From a virus: a stretch of 64,000 nucleotides of DNA. Below are positions 4,955 to 64,000 of this stretch, in pieces. The stretch lies in IMG/VR virus record IMGVR_UViG_3300045988_091566. One strand, given 5' to 3'. Position 1 is the first letter of the stretch; every line of letters begins with the position of its first letter. Position numbers and translations under genes: made by a program. A model generated the notes under the pieces. That model was not told the origin of the DNA, did no database searches, and saw only the letters and a program-made list of their open reading frames with translations.

Positions 4955-5141
4955 ATTAATAAATATCCATCCCCAAATATTTATTAATAAGTAACAGATA
5001 ATTCATTTAACTTATCACAAAAATCAAGAGTTAATTGATTATCTTGTAAATCATTATCTCCTATAGTATCAATAATCTACTGTACTTCATTAAGTACTTT
5101 GTTCATTTTAGACTTTAAGTCTTTTAATTCTTTGTTAGTCA

Positions 5142-5423
5142 TTAATCAATTTTTATATAACCATTAACATCTAGATTATCATATATAGAAGTCATTGTAT
5201 ATCCTGTGATTGGATTTCTATAATGATATTTTTTAATTTCTATATCTTTTTCTGAATTAGAATTTATATTTTGGTTGTCTTTAATCCATTGGTCTAAATC
5301 AGCTTCTGTTCCATTCTCTAATTGAAATAGAATCTTAGGTTCTGATTTTAATCGTTTTAATTTTTTAGTAAGATTAGTTGTTTTTAAAATCTTACCATTT
5401 AATTCATAAATTGCTGCTATCAT
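5142..5423 (-). CDS. hypothetical protein (93 aa)
   Basis: ORF track. A GGGAGA motif lies upstream of its ATG. Confidence 0.45.
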   Translation of the reverse strand: MIAAIYELNGKILKTTNLTKKLKRLKSEPKILFQLENGTEADLDQWIKDNQNINSNSEKDIEIKKYHYRNPITGYTMTSIYDNLDVNGYIKID

Positions 5424-5630
5424 GTTCTCCCACTAGAATTCGAATCCAGACTAAAAGATTTCATTTTAACACCTCTGTAGAGGATTAGACTATCACATCC
5501 AGTCCTAGGACCAGTCTCTTTATTTAGTCGTTCACGCTGTATTTAAACTTGCGCCCTGTCACTTTATACTAAGTATATACGCTTCCAAGTCGATTAAAAG
5601 AGATTCTACTTAAAGATTATGGATTATCCT
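5424..5630 (-). other. structured non-coding region 3' of the HNH gene; contains a tRNA T-arm-like fragment (minus strand CTGGATTCGAATTCTAG) and several hairpins
   Basis: About 200 nt with no ORF. The minus-strand reading contains GGATTCGAA (a T-loop-like motif) and the palindromes GTCCTAGGAC and CCTCTACAGAGG. No complete cloverleaf could be built by hand. Confidence 0.25.
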
Positions 5631-6449
5631 TTAAGCATCCAATATTTCAAAGTAATAGTTTTTCCAAAGAATGCCAACATTTCTATTTAGAGTTGCTCTA
5701 CAAGTTTTCATTAATTTAGTAGTTACTAAATTATTATCCATTAACCATTGACAACATTCTGCTATACACCCAAATCTTCTTATTTCATTATGAGAAGAGT
5801 CATATTGTATAACATACTTTTGATTTTGTTTAGTTAATCCAGCTTCTGATAAAACTTGTTTTACTGCTTTAGGATTTAAATTATATCTATCAGCAACTTT
5901 CTTTTGATTTTTTAATTCTATATAAGAACTAATAATTAAATTCTTTAATTCATCAGAAAGTTCGTATTTAGATTCTACTTTTTGTTTATTTTTAGCACCA
6001 TAAGTAGTGGTTTGACTATGACAATTAGGACACAAAAATCTTAGATTTTCTATTCTATTATCATTATTTACACCATTAATATGGTCTAATTCTAGAGATA
6101 AAGTCTTACCCTGCCATTCTGTAATTCCACATATTGCACATGTATAAGGAAGTAATTTGTTTCTTAATATATAGCTTCTTAATATATTACGTGCGTGTTT
6201 TGAATTTTCACATAATAATTTAGAAGCATCTATTTCTTTCTTTTCATTACAGTCGACTATAGCTGATTTGCCTCTAAAATCTTTACCTGATAAATTTAAA
6301 TCTTGCATTCTTTGTTTAACTTGTGAATATCCCCAACTGTTTCCAACAGTAGTATATCCAAGTTTAAATAAAACTTCTGAGATATTCAGACTTGACTTAA
6401 CTAAGTCTGAAAACTCTTTATCCGTAAGTTTATAAATTTTATTTTCCAT
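5631..6449 (-). CDS. HNH homing endonuclease (272 aa)
   Basis: Contains the motif CAICGITEW...LELDHINGVNNDNRIENLRFLCPNCHSQ, a canonical HNH (His-Asn-His) signature, plus a C-terminal helix-turn-helix-like domain. Confidence 0.8.
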   Translation of the reverse strand: MENKIYKLTDKEFSDLVKSSLNISEVLFKLGYTTVGNSWGYSQVKQRMQDLNLSGKDFRGKSAIVDCNEKKEIDASKLLCENSKHARNILRSYILRNKLLPYTCAICGITEWQGKTLSLELDHINGVNNDNRIENLRFLCPNCHSQTTTYGAKNKQKVESKYELSDELKNLIISSYIELKNQKKVADRYNLNPKAVKQVLSEAGLTKQNQKYVIQYDSSHNEIRRFGCIAECCQWLMDNNLVTTKLMKTCRATLNRNVGILWKNYYFEILDA

Positions 6450-6508
6450 ACTTTAAAATTTTTAAGAGTCTTCTGTGCTAACCATTACACCATAGGAGAA
6501 TATTATCT

Positions 6509-6721
6509 TTATAGATAACTACTAATACTAAAAGGATTTGTAGTAGAAGTAGTTTTATTATTACTAGTGTTTATTGCAATAAACCCATTATGTGGTATAT
6601 CTTTTAAAACCATATTGTCTATAGTTAATTTAGGTCCATTAATAATATTTACTAGTTCTATTAATTGAGATACTGTAAGATTAGGAACTATCTTATTAAT
6701 TTTTTGTAATGTTTCTATCAT
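6509..6721 (-). CDS. hypothetical protein (70 aa)
   Basis: ORF track. Confidence 0.35.
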   Translation of the reverse strand: MIETLQKINKIVPNLTVSQLIELVNIINGPKLTIDNMVLKDIPHNGFIAINTSNNKTTSTTNPFSISSYL

Positions 6722-6905
6722 TTAAAAAATCAACTATGTGTTTAAATTCTTGTTTATATTTTTTATATTTAGAATTATCTAAATTAGAAGAAAAATCTTC
6801 TAAAGATATATCTGAGATAATTCCAAATATTAGACAAGCATTGTTAAATGTTTCATCATCTAATTTACTACAATATTCTTCAAATTCATCTACCTTTTTA
6901 GTCAT
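6696..6905 (-). CDS. hypothetical protein (69 aa)
   Basis: ORF track. Confidence 0.35.
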   Translation of the reverse strand: MTKKVDEFEEYCSKLDDETFNNACLIFGIISDISLEDFSSNLDNSKYKKYKQEFKHIVDFLNDRNITKN

Positions 6906-7115
6906 GGTTATATGAATTACATTATCAATAACCTATAAATTTATATTATACTAATCAGGAAGGTCTTTAATACTTTGTATTAGTTGTTCTTTATTCATTT
7001 AATATTTCTTTTTGATTACACGAGTAATATAGTCGAGGTAGAGAATATTAAAAGTTAATTTTTGTAAAAGTTAATATTTTAAGAAATTAAAATTAAAATT
7101 TTAAAAATCCAATTA

Positions 7116-7595
7116 CTAAATAAACTTATACTCAATTATATTTTTTATAATTTGAGTTCTATCAGATATTTTACCTTTAAAAAAGTATTCAGGATTTAAA
7201 TAGTAAACAGCTTTATATCTAGAATCTTTTAATAACATCTTTTTCTTTACTAAAGAAGTAATAGTATTACGTATAGTTCCAGCAGCTAAGTTAGTTTTAA
7301 TTTTAATAGTATCTCTAAGTTCTTCATCTAAAGAAATCTTATTTCCTGGAAGTGCCCTATCTTTATCTTCATAATAATTAGAAGTATACCATAAAACAGC
7401 TAATACATTAGACTCTGCTTTAGATAACTTATAAAATTCTTCATTATCTCTTAAATATATCTGGCAGAATTGTTCAGCACTAACAGTTTTAATAGTTTTA
7501 ACTTCAGCTGATAATATCTCTCCACCCACTCCAACTTTAATTGACTCTATTTGTTTCATATTAACATTTGTTTTAATTAAAATTAATTTATTCAT
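7116..7595 (-). CDS. hypothetical protein (159 aa), possible DNA-binding regulator
   Basis: ORF track. It is the first gene of the minus-strand unit and lies next to the divergent promoter region. Confidence 0.45.
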   Translation of the reverse strand: MNKLILIKTNVNMKQIESIKVGVGGEILSAEVKTIKTVSAEQFCQIYLRDNEEFYKLSKAESNVLAVLWYTSNYYEDKDRALPGNKISLDEELRDTIKIKTNLAAGTIRNTITSLVKKKMLLKDSRYKAVYYLNPEYFFKGKISDRTQIIKNIIEYKFI

Positions 7596-7998
7596 TTTTT
7601 ATATGATTCAAAATAAATTCACAAAAATTATGTCACAAAAATTATGAATAGAACAAATGTAGGAATGAATGAAGTGAATCCTCCAATGAATAAAATAAAT
7701 CTGTGAGTGCATAAAAAATTTGTAAGTGTCTGATAATCAAGGAGTTATGAAAATACTCTTCTTATCTTATACGTGAAAAATATTTTACATTTTTAAAATT
7801 TTAAAATTTTTAAGGTTACTTTATATATTCCCCCCCCCGTTATTTTTTAGGAACTGTTACATTAATGGCTTTATTGAAGTAGTTAATTTTTAAATTAAAT
7901 TAAGCTATTTGTTCGGGAGTAGACTACCTCCTTAGTCCCCCCACCATATTTAGTCAAAAAACAAAACAAAAAATTAATAATAATTAAACATTAAGATT
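7596..7998. promoter_or_regulatory. divergent intergenic control region: tandem direct repeat CACAAAAATTATG x2 (about 7621-7650), C9 homopolymer (7832-7840), A-rich leader
   Basis: 403 nt with no ORF between divergently oriented genes. The direct repeats and the homopolymer are read directly from the sequence. Confidence 0.35.
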
Positions 7999-8469
7999 AT
8001 GAAAGGTACAAACAATGAAATCAGTCTCAGCCTTTTAGGCTTGGAGAAAATGTACAAGGCTGACTTAGGTGAAGCCTTAGTAGAAAACACTGAGTTTGCT
8101 GTCAGCTTCCCTGACAGTGTAGAGCTCACGACACGTCAGATGTCCCGTGAACTCACTGCTGATGAGCAGCTCTTGCAACGCACTCATCAGTTAGGAATAG
8201 AGTTGACACCTGACGGGCGTGTTCCAAATGGTGAAGCTCCAATCTTAGTGGGGGTAGGTTTCACTAAGGATGATGACGGCAACGTAGTCTTCGGCGGCGG
8301 TAACCACGTAATGATTGCCGGCAACTTTGCAACAGTTTTCGCCGGTAAGACTTGCAAAGAGTGCGCGGAGGCTTATGATAAAGCCGTTAAGGACAACAAG
8401 AAAGTAGTAATGAAAGCTACTAAGTCCGCTAGAGGTAAGATTTGGTCGGAGTTTAGTATCAAGAAGTAA
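7999..8469 (+). CDS. hypothetical protein (156 aa) with markedly elevated GC and codon bias
   Basis: ORF track. The sequence, for example GGCGGCGGTAACCACGTAATGATTGCCGGCAAC, is far more GC-rich than its flanks. A strong terminator follows it. Confidence 0.65.
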   Translation: MKGTNNEISLSLLGLEKMYKADLGEALVENTEFAVSFPDSVELTTRQMSRELTADEQLLQRTHQLGIELTPDGRVPNGEAPILVGVGFTKDDDGNVVFGGGNHVMIAGNFATVFAGKTCKECAEAYDKAVKDNKKVVMKATKSARGKIWSEFSIKK

Positions 8470-8474
8470 TTAAA

Positions 8475-8497
8475 GGGGACTTTGTCCCCTTTTTTTA
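8475..8497 (+). terminator. intrinsic terminator
   Basis: GGGGAC-TTT-GTCCCC hairpin followed by T8. Confidence 0.6.
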
Positions 8498-8528
8498 CTG
8501 TTTCTATTTATTTTTTTGTAGTGTTTGT

Positions 8529-8771
8529 ATGTTTAAGACATTTTATGGATTAGCATTTAAACATTATTTCATTAACTCTGAAACATTAGAACTTTATCGT
8601 AATAAATATATTTCAAATATTGTTTATGGTTGGTTTTTAATTGTCTCGGTTGATGGAGGAGCTACATGGGAAGAAGTGAAACATGTTAGTAGTGGAATCT
8701 TGGAAATAAGATATAAAAACTATCTTATTGGATTAATTTCCGATGTTGAGGAATCTAAAGAGATAAAGTAG
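8529..8771 (+). CDS. hypothetical protein (80 aa)
   Basis: ORF track. Confidence 0.35.
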   Translation: MFKTFYGLAFKHYFINSETLELYRNKYISNIVYGWFLIVSVDGGATWEEVKHVSSGILEIRYKNYLIGLISDVEESKEIK

Positions 8772-9131
8772 GGGAGCAGACTAACTCCCAAAACTCAATC
8801 TCCAATTTCCAACAAATCTCAAATATTCACTACAAATTCATATCTAAAATCACTTTTAAACCATATTACAAATTCAATATTTATCACAAAATACAACACT
8901 TTATTATTTTATTTTAAATATTGAGTTAAACTAAAATCAAAACAACACAAATAAAAATAAACAAATGTTTTGTTTAATGACTTTTAAGGTTGAAATCCCT
9001 GTCTAAAGTTTACTTTAGACAAAATCCTATATCATAGAGCATACCTCAACGTGGTTTATAGGTCTTAAAACTAAAGTGCTTAATATTCATTTAAAAACCT
9101 CGCGATAGTATAAGGTAAATCGTATAAAGTT
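8772..9131 (+). other. strand-biased A/C-rich non-coding region (nearly G-free for about 200 nt) with a GTCTAAAGT-TTAC-TTTAGAC hairpin
   Basis: No ORFs in any frame. Low-complexity CA-rich repeats (CAAAACTCAATCTCCAATTTCCAACAAATCTCAAAT...). Palindrome at about 9001-9022. Confidence 0.3.
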
Positions 9132-9434
9132 ATGCAGTATTTTTATATTGTAGTATACACAATTGTTGGTGATGATTTGACAATGTGTAAAATAGGACTC
9201 AATCCTCATCAACTAACTAAATGGGGAAGAAGAGAGGCTACAAAATATCCTGAACGTAGTTATAAACTATACAGACAGTCTATAACACATACTGGTAAAA
9301 TTACATTCTATAAACAACTTAAATCATATGCAACTGAAGTAGAGCATAGTTTAAAAGTTATAAAAGAAGGTTTTGACTGGGATGCATTTGAGGCAAGTCG
9401 AGGGGCTGATATGGATATTGATATTCGTAGATAA
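9132..9434 (+). CDS. hypothetical protein (100 aa)
   Basis: ORF track. Confidence 0.4.
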   Translation: MQYFYIVVYTIVGDDLTMCKIGLNPHQLTKWGRREATKYPERSYKLYRQSITHTGKITFYKQLKSYATEVEHSLKVIKEGFDWDAFEASRGADMDIDIRR

Positions 9435-9501
9435 CTACAAACACCTGAGCATGTGTATAAACTGCTCTTAACTAGATTATTAACTCTTTAACATTAAAAT
9501 T

Positions 9502-9723
9502 ATGGATAGAAATGTATTAAATGATATAGTAAATATCTTATGTGCAAATATTGAGAAAGTACATGGAGTTATTATCACTCATAACGGCGTTATAACTAAT
9601 GCTTATGGAATGAATAAATATGAGTATCTTGATAGAATAGTATTTAGTAATGAATACATGAATAATATTATTCTTGAATATAAAGATATTAAATCCATAA
9701 CCATTGTTGGTAATGAACAATAA
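9502..9723 (+). CDS. hypothetical protein (73 aa)
   Basis: ORF track. Confidence 0.4.
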   Translation: MDRNVLNDIVNILCANIEKVHGVIITHNGVITNAYGMNKYEYLDRIVFSNEYMNNIILEYKDIKSITIVGNEQ

Positions 9724-9734
9724 TAACATTAAAT

Positions 9735-9917
9735 ATGAAAGCAATAATCGAAAAAGGAAAAGCAGATAATAATATTCAAAGCTGCTTTATATCAGAATGT
9801 GGAATTGAAATAATATTTCATAATAATGACTTGGCAGATAAATTTGCTAAATCATTAGATCCATTTCATATCTCATATGTAAAGAATGGAAATAAAATAA
9901 CTATATCACATAATTAA
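9735..9917 (+). CDS. hypothetical protein (60 aa)
   Basis: ORF track. Confidence 0.35.
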   Translation: MKAIIEKGKADNNIQSCFISECGIEIIFHNNDLADKFAKSLDPFHISYVKNGNKITISHN

Positions 9918-9935
9918 ATTTAACACATTAACAAT

Positions 9936-10445
9936 ATGGAAAAGAATATCGTAAAAAATGGAACTAAAGTAATCCTCTTTGCATTAGATACAGAGGATAC
10001 AAGTGTGACTGGTGTTATTACTGGTCATTGGTCAACTATGTATGGCAAACTCATGTATAAGTGTCACTATAAAGAGCTTGATGGTATTGAAGGAGATCTT
10101 GATAACCTCATGAGAGAAAACTTTGAGGTTGTTCCTAATAAGTTCATTAACTTAACACCTCACACCATCACTCTCAATAATGGTACAGAATACCATGCAT
10201 CAGGTAAAGTTGCTCGTGTCACTAACAAGTTCAGCAATTTTTGCTGTGGTATTTCCACAGTGTTCTATGGTGAGATTGAGAATCTCCCAGAGCCTGAAGA
10301 AGGTACAATCTATATAGTATCAGCAATGGTACTAGCAGCTGCTAAAAACAAAGGCAGAACGGATGTAGTTGCTCCTGCAACAGGTCATCCAGATTGTATC
10401 CGAAAGGACGGATTTATCGTATCCGTTCCAGGATTCGTAAGATAA
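9936..10445 (+). CDS. hypothetical protein (169 aa)
   Basis: ORF track. Confidence 0.5.
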   Translation: MEKNIVKNGTKVILFALDTEDTSVTGVITGHWSTMYGKLMYKCHYKELDGIEGDLDNLMRENFEVVPNKFINLTPHTITLNNGTEYHASGKVARVTNKFSNFCCGISTVFYGEIENLPEPEEGTIYIVSAMVLAAAKNKGRTDVVAPATGHPDCIRKDGFIVSVPGFVR

Positions 10446-10476
10446 TTATTCATTATAACTCCAGTAAATAAAAGCA

Positions 10477-10719
10477 TTGTATCAGGGTTGTAACCTGACT
10501 GGAGTTCTATTGTTTAACACATTAACACATAAAAAAATGATAAAAGTATTGTTTAAATCAGAGGAATTGCTCATAGCAGCAGACTCTGAGAGTGCGGTGG
10601 TTTACGGAAACACCACAAAAAATACCGTAATAGAGTACCTCAGCAATCTTACTCCAAAGAATGGTGAAGAAGCGATGAGCATTATTATGCTTTACTCGCT
10701 ACAAGTAAGTATGTGGTAG
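10477..10719 (+). CDS. hypothetical protein (80 aa)
   Basis: ORF track. Confidence 0.35.
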   Translation: MYQGCNLTGVLLFNTLTHKKMIKVLFKSEELLIAADSESAVVYGNTTKNTVIEYLSNLTPKNGEEAMSIIMLYSLQVSMW

Positions 10720-10904
10720 CTAAACACATTAAAGTTACCACTAAAACAGAAGTGGTTGTAAAAACAGCTAAATCTTCAGTAGTTAAGACTGATGAGGATG
10801 CACTTCGTATTGCTGATAAGTTCGGTCTTAAAGCAGAAGTGCAAAGAGAACTTGATAATGGCGCCACGCCACTAAAAGCTCTTAAAGAGTGGGATATCAT
10901 TTGA
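10713..10904 (+). CDS. hypothetical protein (63 aa)
   Basis: ORF track. Confidence 0.4.
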   Translation: MVAKHIKVTTKTEVVVKTAKSSVVKTDEDALRIADKFGLKAEVQRELDNGATPLKALKEWDII

Positions 10905-11100
10905 TGATTGTTTTAGTCCTGAGTAAGACTTTAAACTGCTCACTTTTTATTAGTTAAAAATTTAAATGGCAATAAAGGATAGAGTTGTAAAATAATATGG
11001 TTGCAGTATCACCCGATGTGGCAACTAGTAGTATTATGCAATGAAATACTAATTAAGGTAGTGGGTTATCAACTCTATCCCAATTAAACACTTTACAGGA

Positions 11101-11352
11101 ATGAAAAAGAATATCTTTGTAATCTCTACTATTTTTTTAGGGATAGTAGTTGTAGCATTATTATTTACAATAGCTACTCTTCAGTCAGAAAATTCTGACT
11201 TACGTAATGTAGTACGTAATCAGGCTAATCAAATTAGCGAAGCCGATAGATACTACAACAATGTTGTAGCTAGAGGTATGTATGCTGATGATCCTGTGTA
11301 TAAAGCATTGGATAGAAGCAATACAAAAATCCAAGTAAATATGAATAAATAA
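11101..11352 (+). CDS. small membrane protein (83 aa) with an N-terminal TM helix
   Basis: ORF track. Hydrophobic N-terminus ISTIFLGIVVVALLFTIATL. Confidence 0.45.
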   Translation: MKKNIFVISTIFLGIVVVALLFTIATLQSENSDLRNVVRNQANQISEADRYYNNVVARGMYADDPVYKALDRSNTKIQVNMNK

Positions 11353-11363
11353 TTCCATATAAT

Positions 11364-11663
11364 ATGTTAACAGGTCGATCAAGTCTCTTGCAGGTACATC
11401 AATTGTATCTGCGAGAGATAAAAAGTAAAGAACACTTACATTGGCGTAAACAAGTCATTAAAACACATAATATGGCTGTAGCCAATCGTAAATCTCATAA
11501 TTATGCAGTCCAACTTTTGGTAAAAGCTACTAATATTCCATATTCAGCAGAATTAGCTAAGTTGATGAATCTTATAATTAATGGGAAATTTACACAACGA
11601 AAAATGTATTATGTATCTATTGATACTGCAATATTTAAACTTATAAATAATTTAACTATTTAA
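11364..11663 (+). CDS. hypothetical protein (99 aa)
   Basis: ORF track. Confidence 0.4.
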   Translation: MLTGRSSLLQVHQLYLREIKSKEHLHWRKQVIKTHNMAVANRKSHNYAVQLLVKATNIPYSAELAKLMNLIINGKFTQRKMYYVSIDTAIFKLINNLTI

Positions 11664-11668
11664 ATAAA

Positions 11669-12133
11669 ATGAAGAAATACAACATTTGGAATAAAATTTT
11701 CCATAAAAGGGAATTAAACAAGAATGTTGCGGATTATAAACTTCAACAAGGTCTTGTTAATAGTTATGAGTGTTGGCTTACTAAAATTGGTAATGCCAAT
11801 ACTCTATCTGAGTGTATGATACTCCATAAAAGAATTTGGCGTAAAGGGTTTCGTAATGCTAACCTTGGTCCAGATAAATATGGAATGTTTAGAACTAAAG
11901 ATATAAACCTTATGACAATAAATGAGGTTTATATTGGAGGAATCTATGGTCTTAATACTCTAACTATCGCACAATGGGAAGATTCTAAAGAAGAACCATA
12001 TGATTCTACACAGACATGCTATGACATTGTCTTATGTGCGTATAAAAGATTGTTAAAATCTAATATTATAGCACTTGCAGATAATGCTAAGTTATTAGTA
12101 GCAGAGTACCAACAAAATAATTATAAGTTATGA
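11669..12133 (+). CDS. hypothetical protein (154 aa)
   Basis: ORF track. Confidence 0.45.
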   Translation: MKKYNIWNKIFHKRELNKNVADYKLQQGLVNSYECWLTKIGNANTLSECMILHKRIWRKGFRNANLGPDKYGMFRTKDINLMTINEVYIGGIYGLNTLTIAQWEDSKEEPYDSTQTCYDIVLCAYKRLLKSNIIALADNAKLLVAEYQQNNYKL

Positions 12134-12215
12134 TATTCTTACAAAATATTATTTTAATTACTCTCCTTATAGGAATGGGTAAAATAGCATACGATGATTT
12201 TAAAGAAATGAATTT

Positions 12216-12677
12216 ATGATAAATGTATTTCAAAATGAGAAGGAATATACAATTTCTGTGACTATTCCTATTAAAAAAGTAAATTTCTCTGAAACTCCAT
12301 CAAAAAGAGATTTCAAGAAGTTTGCAGAAGAAGTATTTGAGGCTTATACTAATATTATAGTAGAAGCTTTGGAAGCTCGAATGAATGCTTGTGTTAATGG
12401 TCTTATTAAGCATTCAGATGATGTAAAGTATTGTGATAGTAAATATATTACATACACTAGAAAATCTGGTGGAGAACATACTTTCTCTTATAATGCTTAT
12501 GATACTATGCAAAGATTAGTTAAAAAAATTCAGCAATATAAGTTGGGTGAATTAACTAAGTCTGAACTCAAACAGATTGCTAAAGCTCTTTATTGGGTTG
12601 AAGATAAATCAGATATTGGAAAATATACATTCCAGGACTTAATTGATGTAATCGATGAATACCGAGAGTTTAAATAA
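12216..12677 (+). CDS. hypothetical protein (153 aa)
   Basis: ORF track. Confidence 0.45.
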   Translation: MINVFQNEKEYTISVTIPIKKVNFSETPSKRDFKKFAEEVFEAYTNIIVEALEARMNACVNGLIKHSDDVKYCDSKYITYTRKSGGEHTFSYNAYDTMQRLVKKIQQYKLGELTKSELKQIAKALYWVEDKSDIGKYTFQDLIDVIDEYREFK

Positions 12678-13029
12678 AAAAATTGTATCAGGTTGTGAGA
12701 GTCTTGCCGGTAAAGCTCTCACAATAGATCATGATGCTAGAACTTATCACATTGGTGATAGAGTAATTCCATTTTCTTCTTGTGTTATTAAAGAAGGTAA
12801 AATTTATTACTTGACACCAATGTGTAAAGTTCTTGTTGATATGGGTTTTAAAGGCGTAGCAGATTTTACCTCTAATACAGTTATTTGTACTAGTTTTGAT
12901 AATTGTAATCGCAATATTAAAACTGTAGGACTTGTAACTATCGACGACAGAGTCTTTATTAAGATTACTCTTAATTCAGAATTTCCAATGTATGAAGGTT
13001 ACGAATCTTTAAGAAGTGAAGTTTATTAG
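12655..13029 (+). CDS. hypothetical protein (124 aa); ends TAG followed immediately by TAA
   Basis: ORF track. The terminal codons are TAT TAG TAA. Confidence 0.4.
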   Translation: MNTESLNKKIVSGCESLAGKALTIDHDARTYHIGDRVIPFSSCVIKEGKIYYLTPMCKVLVDMGFKGVADFTSNTVICTSFDNCNRNIKTVGLVTIDDRVFIKITLNSEFPMYEGYESLRSEVY

Positions 13030-13184
13030 TAAAAAAAGAATGAAGCTGCACTCTAGTACTATAGAGTATAATAAATAGTTGACATCTTGGAAAGAAAATT
13101 GGTTAATCATAAGACAAGACTTATGTATTTTTAAAATAAAATAGTTATCAACAATATACAGTTTAGATCATTTTCGCTAGTTCG

Positions 13185-13199
13185 GTCTGTGATAGATAG
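13185..13199 (+). repeat. copy 1 of the conserved loop motif GTCTGTGRWAGATAG
   Basis: GTCTGTGATAGATAG in a 350-nt non-coding region. Confidence 0.5.
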
Positions 13200-13259
13200 G
13201 GCTAGTTACTTTAGTAATCTATTATGTCCATAAGCACAATAGATTACAAAGACAAATAT

Positions 13260-13290
13260 TAGAGTTCAGTCTGTGGTAGATAGAACTCTA
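13260..13290 (+). repeat. copy 2: hairpin TAGAGTTC-[AGTCTGTGGTAGATA]-GAACTCTA
   Basis: 8-bp stem with the conserved loop motif. Confidence 0.55.
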
Positions 13291-13381
13291 AGTGTAAACC
13301 TACATCCTGCATATCCAAAGTAGCAGACTCTTAATGAGAAAGGTGATGGCACATTATTAATAATTAAATAGTTTAAAAAAA

Positions 13382-14296: not shown

Positions 14297-14307
14297 TTTT
14301 AAAAATT

Positions 14308-55573: not shown

Positions 55574-56594
55574 ACCTCTGATAGAGACTTTAAGAGTTGA
55601 AGATATTGATGATAATACTTATTTCTCAGAAAAGTATAATAATTATATCTCAAACTCTAGATTATCTAAGATAAATCCAGATCAAGATGGTTCTCCAACA
55701 GAGTTCTTTGATAATTGGGGTAAGACTAAGTTAAATACAACTAGCTTGGAATTTGGTAGTTGGTTGCATACTTTAGTTTTACAACCTGATGACTTCTTTC
55801 TAACAGATGTTAACAGACCTACTGCTAAAATGGGGGCAATGGCAGATTATATTTATAAGAAAACACAAGGTATCAATGTTACTAATGATATTATATTAGA
55901 AGCATCTGATAAATGTGATTATTATAAAGATAAAATGTCAGATAAAAAAATAGAAAAAGTGTTAGCAGACTGTGCTCAATACTGGTGTGATAGAAAAGCT
56001 TTTGAAAAAGAAAATAATGATGCTAGAACACCAATATTTACAGACCCTAAAAATCATGCTAAACTGAAAGTCTGTCTAGAGTCTCTAGATAGTGATACAC
56101 AAATTCAATCTTTACTAAACCCTGAAGGATTACTAGAACAACCAATTATTGGTAATGAGATAGCTTTCCTTATAGATGTTTTAGTAGAGGCTCCAGAGCA
56201 TAAACCTTTTATACTAAAAATTAAGTCTAAACTTGATAATTATAGTATAGATAAAGAAGAAGGAATAATCACTGTAAATGATTTAAAAACCACAGGAGAT
56301 TTAATAAATAACTTTGCTAAAGGAGCTCTTATTAAATATCACTATTATAGAGAGATGGCTTTATATAGTTGGTTATTAACTATGGCTGCTAAGAAGAATT
56401 ATAACATTGAGAATCCTAAAATTAGAAGTAATTTCTTAGTAGTAGAAACTATTCCAAATTTTAATACTAAAGTAGTTCCTATGACTAGAGAACTTTTTAA
56501 TAAAGGATTTAAAGAGTTTACTCACCTTCTTAAATTAGTAGCATTCTATTGTATGCATGGTTATGAGGGATTCGGAATTACTCAAGAGACCTGA
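55548..56594 (+). CDS. hypothetical protein (348 aa); possible PD-(D/E)xK-type exonuclease
   Basis: FLIDVLVE ... ILKIKSK / VNDLKTTGD is compatible with D...E.K nuclease motifs. Weak. Confidence 0.3.
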   Translation: MKLSQISIKPLIETLRVEDIDDNTYFSEKYNNYISNSRLSKINPDQDGSPTEFFDNWGKTKLNTTSLEFGSWLHTLVLQPDDFFLTDVNRPTAKMGAMADYIYKKTQGINVTNDIILEASDKCDYYKDKMSDKKIEKVLADCAQYWCDRKAFEKENNDARTPIFTDPKNHAKLKVCLESLDSDTQIQSLLNPEGLLEQPIIGNEIAFLIDVLVEAPEHKPFILKIKSKLDNYSIDKEEGIITVNDLKTTGDLINNFAKGALIKYHYYREMALYSWLLTMAAKKNYNIENPKIRSNFLVVETIPNFNTKVVPMTRELFNKGFKEFTHLLKLVAFYCMHGYEGFGITQET

Positions 56595-56916
56595 TTATAC
56601 TAAACTTTCCGATTTATATCGTAAATACTTTAGTTTAGGGTCTTTAGGGGAAAGTATAAATTTAAAATTTGCACTTATATCGTTACTTGGATATATGGTA
56701 AATTCTATGAAGAAGAAAAAACCTGGAGTTACTTATTATGAAGTAACTGCTAAATTAGCAGAAAAAACAGGTCTTGATGAAGATACAATACAAGCTATTG
56801 CTATCATCACTGAGGATTTTTCATATGGATGTACCGATTTTCCAACATTTGGCGTGCAACCAAAAGATATGCCAACAAAAATAAGAGAATTAATGGGAAA
56901 ATTTCTTCCATTCTAA
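56557..56916 (+). CDS. hypothetical protein (119 aa)
   Basis: ORF track. Confidence 0.4.
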   Translation: MVMRDSELLKRPDYTKLSDLYRKYFSLGSLGESINLKFALISLLGYMVNSMKKKKPGVTYYEVTAKLAEKTGLDEDTIQAIAIITEDFSYGCTDFPTFGVQPKDMPTKIRELMGKFLPF

Positions 56917-57008
56917 AAAAATTAATTTTTTTATAATTTTCTTTTTGGAGGCAAAAAATATAGATTATATTAGCATTACAAAGATAAAGAAAAAACATCG
57001 CAGATGAT

Positions 57009-57689
57009 TTGATAATAAGAATTAATGTTAATATATTTTTGAAAATGAGTGAAATTTTTAATTTTAAGAGTTTTGAAGTAAGTGCAGAAACAAAGGAAGC
57101 AGCAGTAGCACAGGTAGAGAAAGAGAATTTCCATATTAATGGTGATGCAACACAGGCATGGAAGAAGTTCCATGAGAAGAATGCTAAAGTAACTTCTAAT
57201 GATGAGAAGGAGTTTAAGCTGGAGTATTTGAAGAAAAAGACTAAGAATGCTCCTGGTAGTGGTTTCATTGTAACTCTTTCTAGTGCTGTTGTAAGTACAC
57301 GTGAGCGTCCTTGGAAGGTTGTTGATATTAAGACTGAGGGTAAGCGTGATACTCAGAAGAAGTTTGATTTGGTAGACCACGATACAAAGGAAGTGCTGAA
57401 GACTTTGAAGTCTGAGCGTGTAAAGAACGAGAAGGCTGGCGAGCCAATTCTTGATAAGGATGGTAACGATACTGGTCGTGTTGAACCAGATACAAAGGTT
57501 ATTCGTCCTACTAAGACCGCAGCTAAGGAAATGGCTAAGGAACTTATTAAGAAGGGCTTTAAGGGTCAGATCGATATCGTTCAGGGTAAGGAGTCTATTG
57601 GCTCTGACCCAGTAGTAGCTACTGTAACTTATACTCCATCTAAGAGTACTCGTAATGGAAGATGGATGGTTTTTGGTTTGGAATTTTAA
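57009..57689 (+). CDS. hypothetical protein (226 aa), GC-elevated, Lys/Glu-rich
   Basis: ORF track. A terminator follows. Confidence 0.5.
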   Translation: MIIRINVNIFLKMSEIFNFKSFEVSAETKEAAVAQVEKENFHINGDATQAWKKFHEKNAKVTSNDEKEFKLEYLKKKTKNAPGSGFIVTLSSAVVSTRERPWKVVDIKTEGKRDTQKKFDLVDHDTKEVLKTLKSERVKNEKAGEPILDKDGNDTGRVEPDTKVIRPTKTAAKEMAKELIKKGFKGQIDIVQGKESIGSDPVVATVTYTPSKSTRNGRWMVFGLEF

Positions 57690-57712
57690 TTTTATTCATA
57701 ATTTTTAAAGTA

Positions 57713-57746
57713 AGGCAGGTGCTCGCGAGAGTATCTGCCTTTTTTA
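57713..57746 (+). terminator. intrinsic terminator
   Basis: AGGCAG-16nt-CTGCCT hairpin followed by TTTTTT. Confidence 0.55.
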
Positions 57747-57819
57747 ATTTAGATACCTTTTATTTTACTAGATACTTTTATTTATAAAGGCGTAACAGCT
57801 ATCTAATTTTTAAAAAAGT

Positions 57820-59346
57820 ATGAAACAAACAACAAAATCTTCTTATATTAAATTCTTTAATGATGCAATTAATAATAATCGTTCTTTAAAAGCTCAGTGT
57901 ACTATATCAGGAAAAAATATAAATACTGTATATATAACAATGAGAAATCTTAGAAAGAAAGAAAATAAAGATGAAGATGATAAGAAGATATTGGAATTAT
58001 ATGACAGACTAAAGGATACTAAGAAAAAAGAAGTAAAGAAAGATACAGATGATGCTTCTAATACTTGGGAAATAAGAGACGAAGAGACTGGTAAAATTAC
58101 TGGATATAAGTTTGAGATTTTCAGAAGAAATAAGCCCGCAATCACAGGAGTCTTTACTAGAAACGAAATGAATAGTGTATATAGAATGTATACTTATTAT
58201 GGTTCTGGTTTAACCCAGCAGATTGTCAGCAGATATTTCCCAGACTATTCTCTTATTGACTTTAAAAGAATTTTACGAGCTTTTAATATTACTAAAGCAT
58301 CCTCTCCATTTGCCCCTCATATGTATGAAGAATATACTGAGGATGAATTAAAAGAAATGCATCTTAGAGAAAAAGAGAATGATTTCTTAAAAAGAATAGA
58401 GAAAGATGAAGTAAAGGATTTAAGAGCTTTAGTTACTAAGTTAACTAAGGAAACCTCTAAGTCTTTAAATAAGGAACTTATAGAAGATACTATTAAAAAT
58501 ACAGTAAAGGATTATAAAGAGCTTCCAGTAAACATTAATAATAAAGAAGCAAAATATCCTGATTTAATTATATGGTTATCTGATTTACATATCGGAGCTT
58601 ATAATGCTAAATATAGTAGTTTTGTACAGTTACCTTCTTATGATGTTCAAGAAATTAAATCTAGATTATCTAGAATTGTGGAATCTTTTGTGGGACAAGA
58701 ATATCATTCTGTATATGTAGTTAATCTTGGAGATTCTATTGATGGATTTAATAAAGAAACTACTAGAGGAGGTCATGAACTTCCTGAGATTCTTGATAAT
58801 AAAGAAATTAGTGAAGCATTTATAGAGTGTATGATGGAATTCTTTGCTACTCTTACAGTGAAAGTAAAAAGTAAAGATTTTAATTATCTCTCTATAGGAG
58901 AATCTAATCATGGTGGGGATTTTGAATGGTTAAATCAGAAACTTTTAGCTGCATATTTAACTAAATATAATGTTAAGAGTTATATTAGTAACTATCCTAT
59001 TGATAATTTCATCATTGGAGATCATCAATTCCTATATGCTCATGGTAAAGATAATAATTCTCAGACTAGACAATTTCCTCTTACTTTAAATCCTCAGACT
59101 GAATTATTCTTTGCTAATTATATAGCAGAAAAAGGTATATGTAGTCCTCATATTTATGTAGTAAAAGGTGATTTACATAATTATGCTTATACTACTGGTA
59201 AGCAGTTTGACTATATATCAGTAGGTAGTATGTATGGTAGTAGTAATTATATTACAGCTAATTTTGGACATACTAAATGGAGTATTAATTATACTATTGT
59301 AAAAGATAAAGATATTTTGATGGGAATTATTAAAGGAAATAATTAA
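57820..59346 (+). CDS. calcineurin-like metallophosphoesterase (possible Mre11/SbcD-like nuclease) with a charged N-terminal extension (508 aa)
   Basis: Motifs LSDLHIG (D.H), NLGDSIDG (GD..D), GESNHGG (GNH). HAHGKD lies downstream. Confidence 0.5.
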   Translation: MKQTTKSSYIKFFNDAINNNRSLKAQCTISGKNINTVYITMRNLRKKENKDEDDKKILELYDRLKDTKKKEVKKDTDDASNTWEIRDEETGKITGYKFEIFRRNKPAITGVFTRNEMNSVYRMYTYYGSGLTQQIVSRYFPDYSLIDFKRILRAFNITKASSPFAPHMYEEYTEDELKEMHLREKENDFLKRIEKDEVKDLRALVTKLTKETSKSLNKELIEDTIKNTVKDYKELPVNINNKEAKYPDLIIWLSDLHIGAYNAKYSSFVQLPSYDVQEIKSRLSRIVESFVGQEYHSVYVVNLGDSIDGFNKETTRGGHELPEILDNKEISEAFIECMMEFFATLTVKVKSKDFNYLSIGESNHGGDFEWLNQKLLAAYLTKYNVKSYISNYPIDNFIIGDHQFLYAHGKDNNSQTRQFPLTLNPQTELFFANYIAEKGICSPHIYVVKGDLHNYAYTTGKQFDYISVGSMYGSSNYITANFGHTKWSINYTIVKDKDILMGIIKGNN

Positions 59347-59612
59347 TGAGAGACATAAGACTTCCAGAAATATCCGATAAATTTATAGATATTTCTGATA
59401 TAAATGAGAATACTTCGGGTATTATTTTAGCATACAAATGTAATAAACCAGTTGGATTCATTGGCTATAACAATGAAGATATTACATGGGAATATTTCGA
59501 TGATATTACTATAGATTGTAGTTTTAAATGTAATGAAAATTTACTAGCATTACTAAAAGCTATAATGTCAAATAATTACGCCGATAGTTTTAAATTAATT
59601 GATTTTAAATAA
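59346..59612 (+). CDS. hypothetical protein (88 aa); tandem paralog of the next ORF
   Basis: Shares SDINENTSGIILAYKCNKPVGFIGY ... FKLIDFK with the 59612 ORF. Confidence 0.45.
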   Translation: MRDIRLPEISDKFIDISDINENTSGIILAYKCNKPVGFIGYNNEDITWEYFDDITIDCSFKCNENLLALLKAIMSNNYADSFKLIDFK

Positions 59613-59896
59613 TGAAATATATTACTATTCCTAAAAGTAGTGATACTACTATAGATTTAGCAGCTATTACTAATAATTATAAAGGTATAATTATCGCTTA
59701 TAAAGAAGGTATGGCTGTAGGAAGCATTTCATATTGTTCAGATACCGATCTGTGGTATTTTTGTGACAATATAGATAGTAATCAATTTGATACATGTAAA
59801 GGTACATTATTAGAAGTAGTCAATGAATTAATAGATACTAAACATATAGCAGATAATTTTAGATTATTAGAATTTTATACTAACAACGATGATTAG
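59612..59896 (+). CDS. hypothetical protein (94 aa); tandem paralog of the previous ORF
   Basis: AAITNNYKGIIIAYKEGMAVGSISY ... FRLLEFY. Confidence 0.45.
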   Translation: MKYITIPKSSDTTIDLAAITNNYKGIIIAYKEGMAVGSISYCSDTDLWYFCDNIDSNQFDTCKGTLLEVVNELIDTKHIADNFRLLEFYTNNDD

Positions 59897-60509
59897 TAGA
59901 GAAGACGTTTTACAAGAAGCTTTACATAAGTGTTTTGTAGAAATGTATAGATGGGCTCAACCTTCTATAGATTTGGATGAGCTTATTAAAAATGGATTTA
60001 AAGATAGTGAAAAAGATCCTTTATATGCTAGACATTATTTATCTCAAGATAATTTTAAGTATATAAGAGATACTTATATGGATGCATATGGTATTAAGGA
60101 TACTTGGGATGATACTTTTGAAATATTAATTAAGCAACTCTTAGAAGGAGGTATAGAAGATGACTATAAAGAAGCTACTCCTGATAAACCTGCTTATAGA
60201 GATTATAAAAAAGTTCTCCCATTAAAAGAAGTTATTACTTGCCCAGGAGAAGTTAATACTATTATTGACTATATAAAGAAATGTCAAAACTTTTATAAAG
60301 GGCATTGCTATGAAACTAATAAATTTTCTTGTAGTATTGCATTAGGTCCTAGTCCCAATTGTAATGCAAAACATGTTACAGAATATTGGCATAGTCATGG
60401 CAAACCAGAGTTTAAAATAGTAGAATATAATATCTCAGATGTTATTTACGGAGATGGAGATTTTGAAGAAGTATCTGATGAAGAATTCCTCGCTACATTA
60501 AAATGGTAA
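59889..60509 (+). CDS. hypothetical protein (206 aa)
   Basis: ORF track. Confidence 0.5.
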   Translation: MISREDVLQEALHKCFVEMYRWAQPSIDLDELIKNGFKDSEKDPLYARHYLSQDNFKYIRDTYMDAYGIKDTWDDTFEILIKQLLEGGIEDDYKEATPDKPAYRDYKKVLPLKEVITCPGEVNTIIDYIKKCQNFYKGHCYETNKFSCSIALGPSPNCNAKHVTEYWHSHGKPEFKIVEYNISDVIYGDGDFEEVSDEEFLATLKW

Positions 60510-60739
60510 CTAATGAAATTACTAAAGATAACAAGACACTACTTATCTGCTATAAAAATTCATATCCCTATGGGCAAATATTATACAACGGGAGTAAGTG
60601 GATATATATTACTAGTGTAGATATAAATAAAGTTAATTATGCGGAAGATACTCCTCATAATTTAGTACAAAAATTATTAGATAAAGAAATTATTGATAAC
60701 ATAATGTTTTTCACATATAATGGAGAGAATGCCAACTGA
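60503..60739 (+). CDS. hypothetical protein (78 aa)
   Basis: ORF track. Confidence 0.4.
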   Translation: MVTNEITKDNKTLLICYKNSYPYGQILYNGSKWIYITSVDINKVNYAEDTPHNLVQKLLDKEIIDNIMFFTYNGENAN

Positions 60740-61514
60740 ATTTACTTTAGAAGAAGTATTAAAAGGAAAAGCTACTAGTATTAAGGGTAAAGATTATCTT
60801 CCTACTAGAGGATATATTGAGCCTTTCCTAGAAAGAGTTCAAAAATTAACTTCTGATATTAGAGTACATGTAAAATTACCTGATCAAATTACTTATAATA
60901 AAAATGGTGATATAGATACTGCTGATTTAACTTTTAATAGAGTATGGTTAGAAGCAGTATTACCAAATGAATATTCAGTAGATAATCATAAAGAAACTAT
61001 AAATATGTTATATGGATTAGATACTAGAAAACCTATAATAAAGTTTTTTAGAACAGGATTAAATATGGCATGTTTAAATATGTGTGTATTTAATCCTAGT
61101 TATATAAGAGTTTCTGAATTATCTCCTGATAAACCTGTGGATTATTCTCCTGTAAAAACTTTAGTAGAAGCTACTGACTCATTGGGAATTTTCCTTAAAA
61201 CTTTGAAAAATACTGAATTTAATACCTCAGAATCTAACATAAATATCAGTTTAGGATATTGGGTAAGACAAGCTATAACTGAATTTGAAGATAATGGTTT
61301 TGGTAAAATAAAGTTAGCTACTTCTGAAGTTATAGCTTCTTATAAACGTATGTTTGAAGATTCTAAATCTGATTATTATATAGGAATTAATGGAGAAGCT
61401 TCAATGTTTGATGTTTATAATAGTTTTACAGAAGGTATTTCAAATGATAATAATAAGGATATTATGAATAAATTTGAAAAATGTGTATTACTTAAAAAAA
61501 TTTTAAATTTGTAA
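60720..61514 (+). CDS. hypothetical protein (264 aa)
   Basis: ORF track. Confidence 0.5.
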   Translation: MERMPTEFTLEEVLKGKATSIKGKDYLPTRGYIEPFLERVQKLTSDIRVHVKLPDQITYNKNGDIDTADLTFNRVWLEAVLPNEYSVDNHKETINMLYGLDTRKPIIKFFRTGLNMACLNMCVFNPSYIRVSELSPDKPVDYSPVKTLVEATDSLGIFLKTLKNTEFNTSESNINISLGYWVRQAITEFEDNGFGKIKLATSEVIASYKRMFEDSKSDYYIGINGEASMFDVYNSFTEGISNDNNKDIMNKFEKCVLLKKILNL

Positions 61515-61574
61515 AAATTTATTTGCTTCTTGTACAAATCTATATATAGTCATCTTAACTAAATCATAATACAG

Positions 61575-62906
61575 ATGAATAAAGAATATTTTATTAAAAA
61601 AGCTCAAGAAATTCATGGAAATAAGTATGATTATTCCCTAGTAGAAGTTTCTAGATCAAAAGATAAAGTTAAGATAATATGTCCTATTCATGGAGTGTTT
61701 GTGCAAGAAGCAAATTCACATTTATAGGGACGAGGTTGTGCTATTTGTTCAGGTAAAAAATTTGATTTAGATACCTTTATACGAAAAGCAAATAAAATTT
61801 GGAATAATAAATATGATTATTCCAAAGTAGTCTATACGGGTACTAATAACAAAGTATGTATCATATGTCCTGAACATGGAGAATTTTGGCAAACAGTTAG
61901 TAATCATTTAAAAGGACAATGTGCTTGTAAGGAATGCCGAGGAAAAAGTAAAGATTTTAAAGTAATTAGATCCAAAGAGGATTTTGTAAAAGCTGCTAAT
62001 GAAAAGTATAATTATAAATTTGATTATTCAAAAGTAGATTTTAAAGGTAGTAGAGAAAAAGTTTGTATTATATGCCCTGAACATGGAGAATTTTGGTAGT
62101 TACCTTATCAGCATTTAAATTGTAAAAATGGATGTCCTAAATGTACTAATACTTTCAGATTTACTCAAGATGAATTTATTAAAGAATGTGAGAAAATTCA
62201 TCCCGAATATACTACAAATAAAACTGTTTATACTGGAATAACTAATTCAGTAATTTTAACTTGCCCAAAACATGGAGATTTTAGCATATTAGCATCAACT
62301 TTAATATACCATCATGGATATTGTCCAGATTGTGCTATAGAATCTTATACTTTAACTAAAGAAGATTTTATAAAAAAAGCTAGAGAAGTTCATGGTTGGA
62401 AATACGATTATAGTGAAGTTAATTATATAAATTATAAAACTCCAATTACTATCATTTGCCCAAAACATGGTAAATTTGAGCAATCACCAGGTAATCATTT
62501 AAAAGGGTGTAAATGCCCTGAATGTGCTAGAGAACAAATAGAGCCTAGTAAAGGAGAATTATTTATAAAAAATTTATTAAATAAATATCATTGTAAATAT
62601 AAATTTCAATATGAGATAAAGACTAAAGAAATAGCACGTAATTCTAATAAAATTATAGTAGATTTCATAGTAAAACATAATGATTGTATTTATATAATAG
62701 AATATAATGGAAAACAACATTATGAATTTATACCATTTTTTCATAATAGCCAAGAAGATTTTCAAAAACAAATTAGAAGAGATAATTTATTAAGAAAAAT
62801 ATGTAGTAAACATCCTGGAAAATTAGAATTGATAGAAATTCCTTATAATTATTCTAATTCTAAAATAATAGATACACTCTCTTTTTTAGATGAAACAAAA
62901 ATTTAA
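61575..62906 (+). CDS. paralog of the 53573 gene: Zn-ribbon-repeat plus DUF559-like endonuclease with 2 in-frame TAG (61725, 62097)
   Basis: Frame 3 is continuous from ATG 61575 to TAA 62904-62906 if TAG is sense. Repeats KYDYS.V.Y.....KV.IICPEHGEFW*LPYQHL...GCPKC. C-terminal IVDFIVKHNDCIYIIEYNGKQHY. Invisible in the ORF track. Confidence 0.55.
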
Positions 62907-63006
62907 TTTTGAAATAACTATATAAGCACTATATTATTAGTTCAGTACTAGTATTATAGTGCTTATTTCGTAGATGATTTAAAATGTTAATTTATAAATG
63001 TTATTT

Positions 63007-64000
63007 ATGGTAATAAAGAGAGACGGAACTAAAGAAGAATTTAACAGAAACAAAATTAGAGATGCTGTACTAAAGGCTTTTGGAGTTACCCAAAATTCTA
63101 GTAAGACAATGGACGAAGATATTTACAGAGCAGTTACTGAGATAACTAATTCTGTAGTAGAAACTGAAGATCAATCTATTGAGGATATTCAAGATCAAAT
63201 TGAAGAACTCTTAATGGATTTAGGATATTACAACGTAGCTAAAAAATATATTTTATATCGTAAAGAACGTGAAGATATTAGAAATCATGCTACTAGGGAT
63301 ATTAAATTTATTCATAATTTTGTAAAGTCTGATAATACTGCTAATGCTACTATTGATGATAATAGTAATGTAGGAACTAAAGGTATTGGAGTATTAAACG
63401 CTGAAATACATAAAGTCGATAATAAACTTACTAATACAGAATGGTGGGAAAGTTTTGTAAAGAAGAGAGACCCTAACTTTAATATAAAAGTTATGAGGAA
63501 TGACTTTAAAACTATTTTGTATCCTCATGACTCATCTTCTCAAGTAGGAGAACCATATTGTATGGCAGCTTCTATGTATCCTTTCTTGTTGTTTGGATTA
63601 GAGAAATTAGGAGGTAAATCAGCTGTTCCAAAGAACCTTGATTCATTTTGTGGTATTTATGTAAATTTAAACTTTGCATTAGCCTCTGAAATTAAAGGAG
63701 CAGTAGCTACTCCTGAGTTTCTGATGTATATGGATTATTTCTGTAGAAAAGAATGGGGAAATAATTATTATCTCAAACCAAGTGTAAAAATAACTACAGA
63801 TTATTGTATAAAACAGAAAACTATTGGCAGTCAAATTGATCAATATTTCCAACAGGTAACTTATTCCATTAATCAAATAGCAGGAGCTAGAGGAATGCAG
63901 TCCCCATTTACAAATTTTTCATTCTTCGATAAATATTTCTTTGAAGGTATGTTTGGAGAATTTGTATTTCCAGATGGAACAAAGCCAGAATGGAATTCTA
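63007..64000 (+). CDS. nrdD: anaerobic ribonucleoside-triphosphate reductase NrdD (class III RNR), N-terminal part; runs off the window end
   Basis: N-terminal ATP-cone VIKRDGTKEEFNRNKIRDAVLKA. The segment ILYPHDSSSQVGEPYCMAASMYPFLL...VPKNLDSFCGIYVNLNFALASEIKGAVATPEF parallels, from memory of the E. coli NrdD sequence, IHYHDLDYSPFFPMFNCML...PPKSISTATAV...QVASHIYGGTT. The frame is open from ATG 63007 to position 64000. Confidence 0.7.
   Translation, partial: MVIKRDGTKEEFNRNKIRDAVLKAFGVTQNSSKTMDEDIYRAVTEITNSVVETEDQSIEDIQDQIEELLMDLGYYNVAKKYILYRKEREDIRNHATRDIKFIHNFVKSDNTANATIDDNSNVGTKGIGVLNAEIHKVDNKLTNTEWWESFVKKRDPNFNIKVMRNDFKTILYPHDSSSQVGEPYCMAASMYPFLLFGLEKLGGKSAVPKNLDSFCGIYVNLNFALASEIKGAVATPEFLMYMDYFCRKEWGNNYYLKPSVKITTDYCIKQKTIGSQIDQYFQQVTYSINQIAGARGMQSPFTNFSFFDKYFFEGMFGEFVFPDGTKPEWNS

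Follow-up and report, generated by a model that had tools for sequence, protein, structure and literature searches.

TAG stop codons are as rare in standard-code crAss-like phages as in the early and middle genes of a probable Zeta-type phage whose candidate amber suppressor tRNA gene is split by a predicted group I intron

Introduction

Are TAG stop codons rare in a phage that reads TAG as an amino acid because its suppressor transfer RNA (tRNA) has made them unsafe as terminators, or would they be rare in any case? The question is raised by IMG/VR virus record IMGVR_UViG_3300045988_091566, of which a stretch of 64,000 nucleotides (nt), hereafter the window, is analysed here. A first-pass annotation, made from the letters alone, had proposed that the genes between 5 and 64 kb, which read under the standard code, avoid TAG as a terminator and that the whole genome has been purged of it. 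The stop codons of this region have now been counted systematically and compared with those of standard-code phages. The rarity of TAG is real yet ordinary and is not specific to a phage that bears a suppressor; a suppressor-driven purge is not shown.

The window has a guanine plus cytosine (GC) content of 29.3%, matching the earlier figure of about 29%. MT835539 and MT835492, GenBank scaffolds that both derive from one human faecal sample, are ~95% identical to it and overlap one another by 124 nt at both ends, which joins them into a single 176.3-kb circle, referred to below as the relative. The portal protein of the relative is 23–29% identical to annotated crAss-like portals and 49–56% identical to those of two unannotated gut scaffolds. 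Size, portal and intron load are compatible with the Zeta group of crAss-like phages, whose genomes have 145–192 kb and many introns (PMC7886860; PMC12386605), and group I introns are present here. These characteristics fit a large (~176 kb) Zeta-type crAss-like gut phage. Nearly all genes of the window lie on the + strand from ~8 kb onward, and the region from 30 to 60 kb is a replication module by its PHROGs matches.

Stop codon usage between 5 and 64 kb

Genes were called with our own codon-usage caller, which on the annotation of phage crAss001 recovered 92 of 97 stops and made 4 extra calls. It called 106 genes between 5 and 64 kb, ending in TAA (74), TGA (21) or TAG (11). TAA is therefore the preferred terminator, with 70% of the stops. 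Of the TAG ends, two lie within endonuclease genes whose frame stays open beyond them (37393–38109 and 61575–62906), leaving nine true TAG-terminated open reading frames (ORFs) among 104 genes, or 8.7% (Table 1). In the relative, the same nine stops are TAG in six cases and TAA in one (12655–13029), and the segment is lacking for the other two.

The dominance of TAA had been seen correctly in the first-pass annotation, as had the TAG followed by TAA at the end of 12655–13029 and the in-frame continuation through TAG of three endonuclease genes (37393–38109, 53573–54613 and 61575–62906). These four had been taken to be the only TAG ends, essentially all other ORFs being thought to end in TAA or TGA. 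The systematic count adds eight TAG-terminated ORFs that had been overlooked.

Three neutral expectations were calculated for the share of TAG among stops. They are 24.1% from the mononucleotide composition of the coding strand, 23.1% from the off-frame stop triplets in the same genes, and 24.5% from the next in-frame stop downstream. The observed share is 8.7–10.4%, and the uncorrected count of 11 out of 106 gives a binomial P of 2e-4 to 6e-4 against these expectations. In the comparison with base composition that the first-pass annotation had proposed as a check, TAG thus falls well below its expected frequency, and the idea is not refuted by it.

Comparison with standard-code phages

The same caller was applied to three standard-code controls: crAss001 (34.8% GC, no suppressor annotated), MT835470 (a standard-code relative with a portal 49% identical) and cr118_1 (28.7% GC, no tRNA genes). 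TAG ends 13 of 96 genes in crAss001, 11 of 115 in MT835470 and 10 of 91 in cr118_1, and each control shows a similar deficit of TAG against its own neutral expectation. Their range is 9.6–13.5%, and the pooled share of 34 out of 302 (11.3%) does not differ from the 8.7% of the window (Fisher P = 0.58), nor does it if the naive window count is used (P = 0.86). The full early block of the relative has 12 TAG stops out of 148 (P = 0.33 against the controls). The ratio of TAG to TGA, 9:21 in the window and 34:60 in the pooled controls, is also similar (P = 0.66).

The claim of a purge fails because the TAG share of standard-code crAss-like phages is indistinguishable from that of the window. Of the proposal that the whole genome is purged of TAG, the under-representation against composition stands, but nine TAG stops persist, six of them conserved, at a share equal to that of standard-code phages. 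Likewise, the suggestion that the deficit is what a suppressor would lead one to expect is right in that a tRNA(CUA) gene, split by an intron, is encoded in this region, but the same deficit is present in the standard-code controls.

Two other baselines were tried and discarded. A PolA-centred scan of IMG/VR returned 17 near-identical and 5 distant loci, and the code of the distant ones could not be classified from their flanks. A tblastn search for relatives with the 677-aa protein encoded at 32860–34893 was of no use as a baseline, the family being spread over many unrelated phages.

Explanations for the rarity of TAG stops

The explanation favoured here, at a probability of about 0.65, is that the rare TAG stops are an inherited stop-codon bias of AT-rich genomes that pre-dates or accompanies recoding, with no demonstrable purge. 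Compatibility of the genes with both codes would then come mostly free, since a GC content of 29% favours TAA and TAG is the rarest stop across the lineage. Read-through would be short by default because of the same GC content, with an in-frame TAA or TGA met within a few codons (median 5–8). The early genes would probably be translated before the spliced tRNA(CUA) accumulates. Later in infection the nine proteins would gain between 1 and 51 residues, three of them a single Gln, and weak selection for a back-up TAA right after TAG is possible. Borges et al. found that standard-code relatives of recoded phages strongly prefer TAA and use TAG least, which they attributed to low GC (bioRxiv 10.1101/2021.08.26.457843). 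The three controls used here behave likewise: they are low in GC, strongly favour TAA and have TAG as their least frequent stop. Depletion of the stop codon is a precondition for recoding in that study, whereas the first-pass annotation saw it as a consequence.

The tentative alternative is the view of that annotation, in which selection following acquisition of the suppressor removed TAG terminators or backed them with TAA, read-through being harmful. It draws on the low share of TAG, 8.7–10.4% against the expected 23–24.5%, and on the presence of a tRNA(CUA) gene. Several observations weigh against the favoured explanation and towards this one. Of the 9 TAG-terminated ORFs, 3 end in an immediate TAG TAA tandem; among the 32 genes that end in TAG in the controls, there is 1 (P = 0.028). 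Similar remarks have been made on the Zeta crAss-like phages with Sup-CTA, which reportedly avoid TAG stops or place TAA directly after them (PMC12386605). The early block of the relative has a TAG to TGA ratio of 12:37, below the 10:8 of cr118_1 (P = 0.02), the sole control to differ. Of the controls, MT835470 is known from a partial scaffold, and a suppressor of its own is possible. The counts, from 104 genes, would also be compatible with TAG being depleted as much as about two-fold against the controls. Even so, selection of this kind is unlikely, given the equal TAG share in standard-code crAss-like phages without a suppressor and the persistence of the nine TAG-terminated ORFs, six of which are conserved in the relative. 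The back-up stops do not favour it either. From the TAG end to the next TAA or TGA the nine ORFs have 0, 0, 0, 2, 6, 10, 13, 19 and 50 codons, and four have no back-up stop within 10 codons. The median is 8 codons after TAG-ended genes and 5–6 after those ended by TAA or TGA; as it is no shorter after TAG, back-up distance was rejected as evidence for selection and only the class of immediate tandems differs. Immediate tandems also follow 11.6% of the TAA- or TGA-ended genes of the window (P = 0.08 against 3 of 9). The excess of tandems is the sole specific pointer to selection against unprotected TAG stops, and the hint it gives is a weak one.

Two further accounts of the nine ORFs have little probability. 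They could be programmed to make a short protein early in infection and, after the suppressor becomes active, a form extended at its C terminus, and the conservation of TAG in six of them and extensions of 11–51 residues in four could be read in this way. This is very improbable, as the extensions have no coding signature or homologues, three consist of one residue, and the longest (8529–8771, 51 residues) is of low complexity in an ORF that the relative does not have. That the nine TAG ends are gene-calling artefacts, and the near-zero count of the first-pass annotation right, is more improbable still. Two of the nine are short with modest scores (8529–8771 and 39863–40063), but the accuracy of the caller on crAss001 argues against artefacts, as does the length of the other seven (94–256 aa, scores 24–104). 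In addition, the substitutions between 51247–52017 and its counterpart in the relative fall 4, 3 and 17 times on the three codon positions, a third-position bias.

Two coding regimes

Between 1 and 4.9 kb there is no long ORF under the standard code, and three appear once TAG is a sense codon (Table 1). In 1–4 kb, ORF coverage goes from 0% in the standard code to 68% once TAG is read as sense; for the late block of the relative it rises from 0–26% to 90–100%. TAG occurs 3.4 times per 100 codons in this late block and accounts for 63% of its Gln codons. The 46 TAG positions of the portal gene were aligned with two standard-code homologues, which have Q at 13 and 18 of them, Q being the commonest residue in both. 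The two homologues agree on Q in 23 columns, of which 11 are TAG and 8 are Q in the query. TAG is therefore assigned as Gln (code 15), since the portal TAG positions align mainly with Q, and it is the main glutamine codon of the late genes. Code 15 has been proven by proteomics in other crAss-like phages (PMC9523058).

In the block from ~5 to 64 kb, internal TAG codons are confined to the three endonuclease genes. By the 30-nt rule of the Mgcod study, which compares stop positions under both codes, 100 of the 104 early and middle genes (96%) are equivalent and 4 exceed the limit. The window thus has two coding regimes, a late one in code 15 and a dual-coded early and middle block. This arrangement, including recoded endonuclease genes, has already been described. 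The code-11 block of phages that use codes 11 and 15 is usually dual-coded and rich in replication genes (bioRxiv 10.1101/2022.06.29.495998). As in those phages, the replication and early genes here are near-identical under both codes, the late block needs TAG to be Gln, and the suppressor lies outside the recoded late genes. There is no essential difference; what is particular here is that 4 of 104 genes go beyond the 30-nt rule and that the suppressor is invisible to tRNA finders.

The phage also resembles the Zeta phages with Sup-CTA (PMC12386605) in its genome of ~176 kb, crAss-type portal, tRNA arrays, introns and TAG-TAA tandems. In phage Lera all TAG stops are reportedly tandem (PMC12386605), in comparison with 3 of 9 in the window. 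The present lineage differs from the Zeta Sup-CTA phages in that it truly uses amber recoding in late genes and in that its tRNA(CUA) gene is interrupted.

Endonuclease genes containing TAG

The segments 36919–38109, 53267–54557 and 61031–62906 hold the TAG-containing endonuclease genes and are missing from the ~95% identical relative; they are therefore recent insertions. Read-through is needed for 37393–38109, since the HNH motif follows the third TAG. In 53573–54613, which encodes repeats of a DUF723 protein, the residue opposite one TAG is Q in four paralogous units. Translation of all three genes is predicted to need the suppressor. An HNH gene that lies within the suppressor's own intron has no TAG, unlike these three inserted genes.

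In-frame reassigned stops that occur only in the endonuclease genes of the early block are also a feature of the Agate phages (bioRxiv 10.1101/2021.08.26.457843). By analogy, reassigned stops in such genes should delay their translation. The Agate codon is TGA; that of the window is TAG, and its genes are of the HNH and DUF723 types, all three absent from the relative. A recoded intron endonuclease inside an early gene has been described as well (bioRxiv 10.1101/2021.08.26.457843). The three genes of the window, in contrast, are described here simply as inserted genes.

Table 1. Coordinates of the coding blocks, TAG-terminated ORFs, TAG-containing genes and tRNA genes of the window
Feature	Coordinates	Strand	Characteristics
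Late-type ORF, 451 aa	463..1818	+	15 in-frame TAG, against 9 CAA and 2 CAG; ends in TAA
Late-type ORF, 378 aa	2642..3778	+	9 in-frame TAG; ends in TAA
Late-type ORF, 378 aa	3763..4899	+	9 in-frame TAG; ends in TAA
Early/middle block, dual-coded	4900..64000		same reading in codes 11 and 15; internal TAG only in three endonuclease genes
Candidate tRNA(CUA) exon 2, 38 nt	5424..5461	-	AAAUCUUUUAG...GGGAGAAC
Group-I-like intervening sequence, 1003 nt	5462..6464	-	between anticodon positions 35 and 36
HNH homing-endonuclease ORF in the tRNA intron, 272 aa	5631..6449	-	Pfam HNH E 1.1e-5; no in-frame TAG; ends in TAA
Candidate tRNA(CUA) exon 1, 36 nt	6465..6500	-	ends ...GAAGACUCU, through anticodon position 35
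TAG-ended ORF, 159 aa	7116..7595	-	tandem TAG TAA; TAG conserved in the relative
TAG-ended ORF, 80 aa	8529..8771	+	next TAA/TGA 50 codons on; not in the relative
TAG-ended ORF, 124 aa	12655..13029	+	tandem TAG TAA; TAA in the relative
tRNA cluster of the early block	15639..18721	+	Arg, Glu, Ser, Gln-UUG, Leu, Met and others; none with a CUA anticodon
TAG-ended ORF, 151 aa	20785..21240	+	TAA 13 codons on; overlaps start of next gene; not in the relative
TAG-ended ORF, 99 aa	26273..26572	+	TAA 6 codons on; TAG conserved in the relative
HNH homing-endonuclease gene	37393..38109	+	4 in-frame TAG; HNH motif after the third; not in the relative
TAG-ended ORF, 66 aa	39863..40063	+	TGA 19 codons on; TAG conserved in the relative
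TAG-ended ORF, 101 aa	46510..46815	+	TAA 2 codons on; TAG conserved in the relative
TAG-ended ORF, 256 aa	51247..52017	+	tandem TAG TAA; TAG conserved; highest coding score of the TAG-ended ORFs
DUF723-type endonuclease-like gene	53573..54613	+	3 in-frame TAG; not in the relative
TAG-ended ORF, 94 aa	59612..59896	+	ends TAG TAG; TAA 10 codons on; stop overlaps start of next gene; TAG conserved
DUF723-type endonuclease-like gene	61575..62906	+	2 in-frame TAG; not in the relative

A candidate amber suppressor tRNA gene split by a probable intron

No tRNA(CUA) was reported by ARAGORN, Rfam or a motif scan in either the window or the complete genome of the relative. The motif scan, which covered the window and the 176-kb relative for YU-CUA-R loops, 5-bp stems and a T loop, came back empty because the gene is split; ARAGORN run with introns of up to 2000 nt did not find the split tRNA either. 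Homology to the intact tRNA(cta) of IMG/VR contigs of the same lineage places the gene in two exons on the minus strand, between 6500 and 5424. Exon 1 has the same sequence as the first 36 nt of the uninterrupted tRNA(cta) genes of relatives L037 and L048. Exon 2 matches the last 38 nt, with compensatory T-stem changes relative to L037. With the exons joined, the anticodon loop reads CU-CUA-AA and the fold of lowest energy is a cloverleaf; the spliced product would function as tRNA(CUA). A scan for sigma-70 promoters around the gene gave no more matches than shuffled sequence.

The intervening sequence is predicted to be a group I intron. The context of its splice sites is ...GACUCU / UAAAAA...AAAAUG / AAAUCU, with U before the insert and G as its last base, a pattern common to both types of intron allele. 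Core helices can be read by eye in canonical order in the last 150 nt of the insert: P3 (UCUCUUU/AAAGAGA), P7 (GACUA/UAGUC), P8 (7 bp, at 5514–5499) and P9 (at 5483–5472). An R element, GACUAAAU, at 5529–5522 and an S element, GAUAGUCU, at 5494–5487 were likewise identified by eye, and these resemble the R and S elements of an Rfam-confirmed intron at 28915–29171.

Three alleles occur at the site. The intron is missing from nine contigs; the 1003-nt insert is present in five genomes, namely those of the window, of three IMG/VR contigs and of the 176-kb relative; and an ORF-less insert of 219–223 nt occupies precisely this site in two contigs. For the 223-nt allele, Rfam Intron_gpI gives the best match, which is full-length but, at 16.8 bits and E 0.049, under the gathering score. 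Rfam on 5300–6650 gave no group I match to the 1003-nt allele.

In inserting within the anticodon loop, the element is like the group I introns of cyanobacterial tRNA-Leu(UAA) and tRNA-fMet (PMC3984707), the latter of which carries an endonuclease gene (PMC3984707). It shares with bacterial tRNA group I introns the U before the 5' splice site, the terminal G, the candidate P7 R and S elements, and the existence of alleles that lack the intron, or have it but lack the endonuclease ORF, beside those that have both. It differs from them in its host gene, which codes for a phage amber suppressor tRNA, in its site between positions 35 and 36, in the HNH type of its ORF and in that its splicing is predicted from sequence.

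On balance it is probable that the amber suppressor tRNA that would switch this phage to code 15 is split by a mobile group I intron, with the supply of the decoding tRNA depending on self-splicing. It is less likely that splicing helps to time the code switch.

Other tRNA genes and RNA elements

A 'tRNA-Stop(tta)' called by ARAGORN at 16228–16312, and also in the homologue of 15717–15797 in the relative, was rejected as a suppressor: the enlarged anticodon loop gives rise to a false call. In Infernal alignments both genes are class I tRNAs, and the loop holds an insertion of 10–11 nt. In relatives the call becomes 'Tyr(ata)' through a single-nucleotide difference in a run of T, the two paralogues have UCAU in common at the place of a CAU anticodon, and the reading of TAG as Gln is inconsistent with a UUA anticodon or a class II tRNA. 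The genes at 15717–15797 and 16228–16312 are paralogous, class-I-like and conserved in the lineage, with the insertion on the 5' side of the anticodon loop. Differences of 1 nt determine whether ARAGORN labels them Met(cat) with an intron, Stop(tta) or Tyr(ata).

Other genes also have unusual features. The Phe-like tRNA gene at 16420–16489 has an anticodon arm 3 nt shorter than that of tRNA-Phe(GAA) in the relative. At 18368–18440 an odd tRNA gene can be read with an anticodon loop of 6 nt (CGUAGA) or, alternatively, with a stem of 4 bp and a loop of 8 nt. At 36253–36330 ARAGORN finds a tRNA-Asp with the anticodon ATC (A34); the corresponding gene of the relative has GTC. A 36-nt repeat containing an inverted repeat (GCAACTA...TAGTTGC) is located ahead of tRNA-Arg (15599–15634) and tRNA-Leu (18046–18081), and the 17-nt motif GTCTGTGAAGATAGRGA is ahead of tRNA-Glu (16647–16663) and tRNA-Ser (16833–16849). 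These two sequences may be promoters or processing signals of the tRNA array.

Scaffold MT835492 (L001) has an extra 1.3-kb segment at 12019–13303, corresponding to the position between 36337 and 36330 of the window, which contains tRNA-Thr(UGU), tRNA-Met, tRNA-Tyr and an endonuclease-like ORF with in-frame TAGs. The window does not have this segment, and the tRNA repertoire therefore varies within the species.

The group I intron at 28915–29171 (Rfam, 85.9 bits) sits in an 886-nt segment (28924–29809) that is not in the relative. The same segment has an ORF on the opposite strand (29098–29727) with a zf-FCS match.

Significance

A deficit of TAG against base composition is always seen in AT-rich phages and is thus not evidence for a suppressor or a purge. 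It has to be judged against relatives that use the standard code and have a similar GC content, and by that comparison the window is ordinary.

The suppressor gene could matter more than the stop-codon result. A 2014 review states that all phage introns then known were in protein-coding genes and none in a phage tRNA gene (PMC3984707), and a literature search of incomplete coverage found no report of an intron-split suppressor tRNA. If the prediction is correct, this would be an intron in a phage tRNA gene, of a kind which that review says had not been seen. Only ~40% of TAG-recoded phage genomes have a detectable suppressor (bioRxiv 10.1101/2021.08.26.457843). A suppressor tRNA hidden by an intron is a concrete and testable reason for this problem of the missing suppressor and, if true, would explain why tRNA finders report none in many clearly recoded phages. 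This suggests that annotation pipelines should look for split tRNA(CUA) genes.

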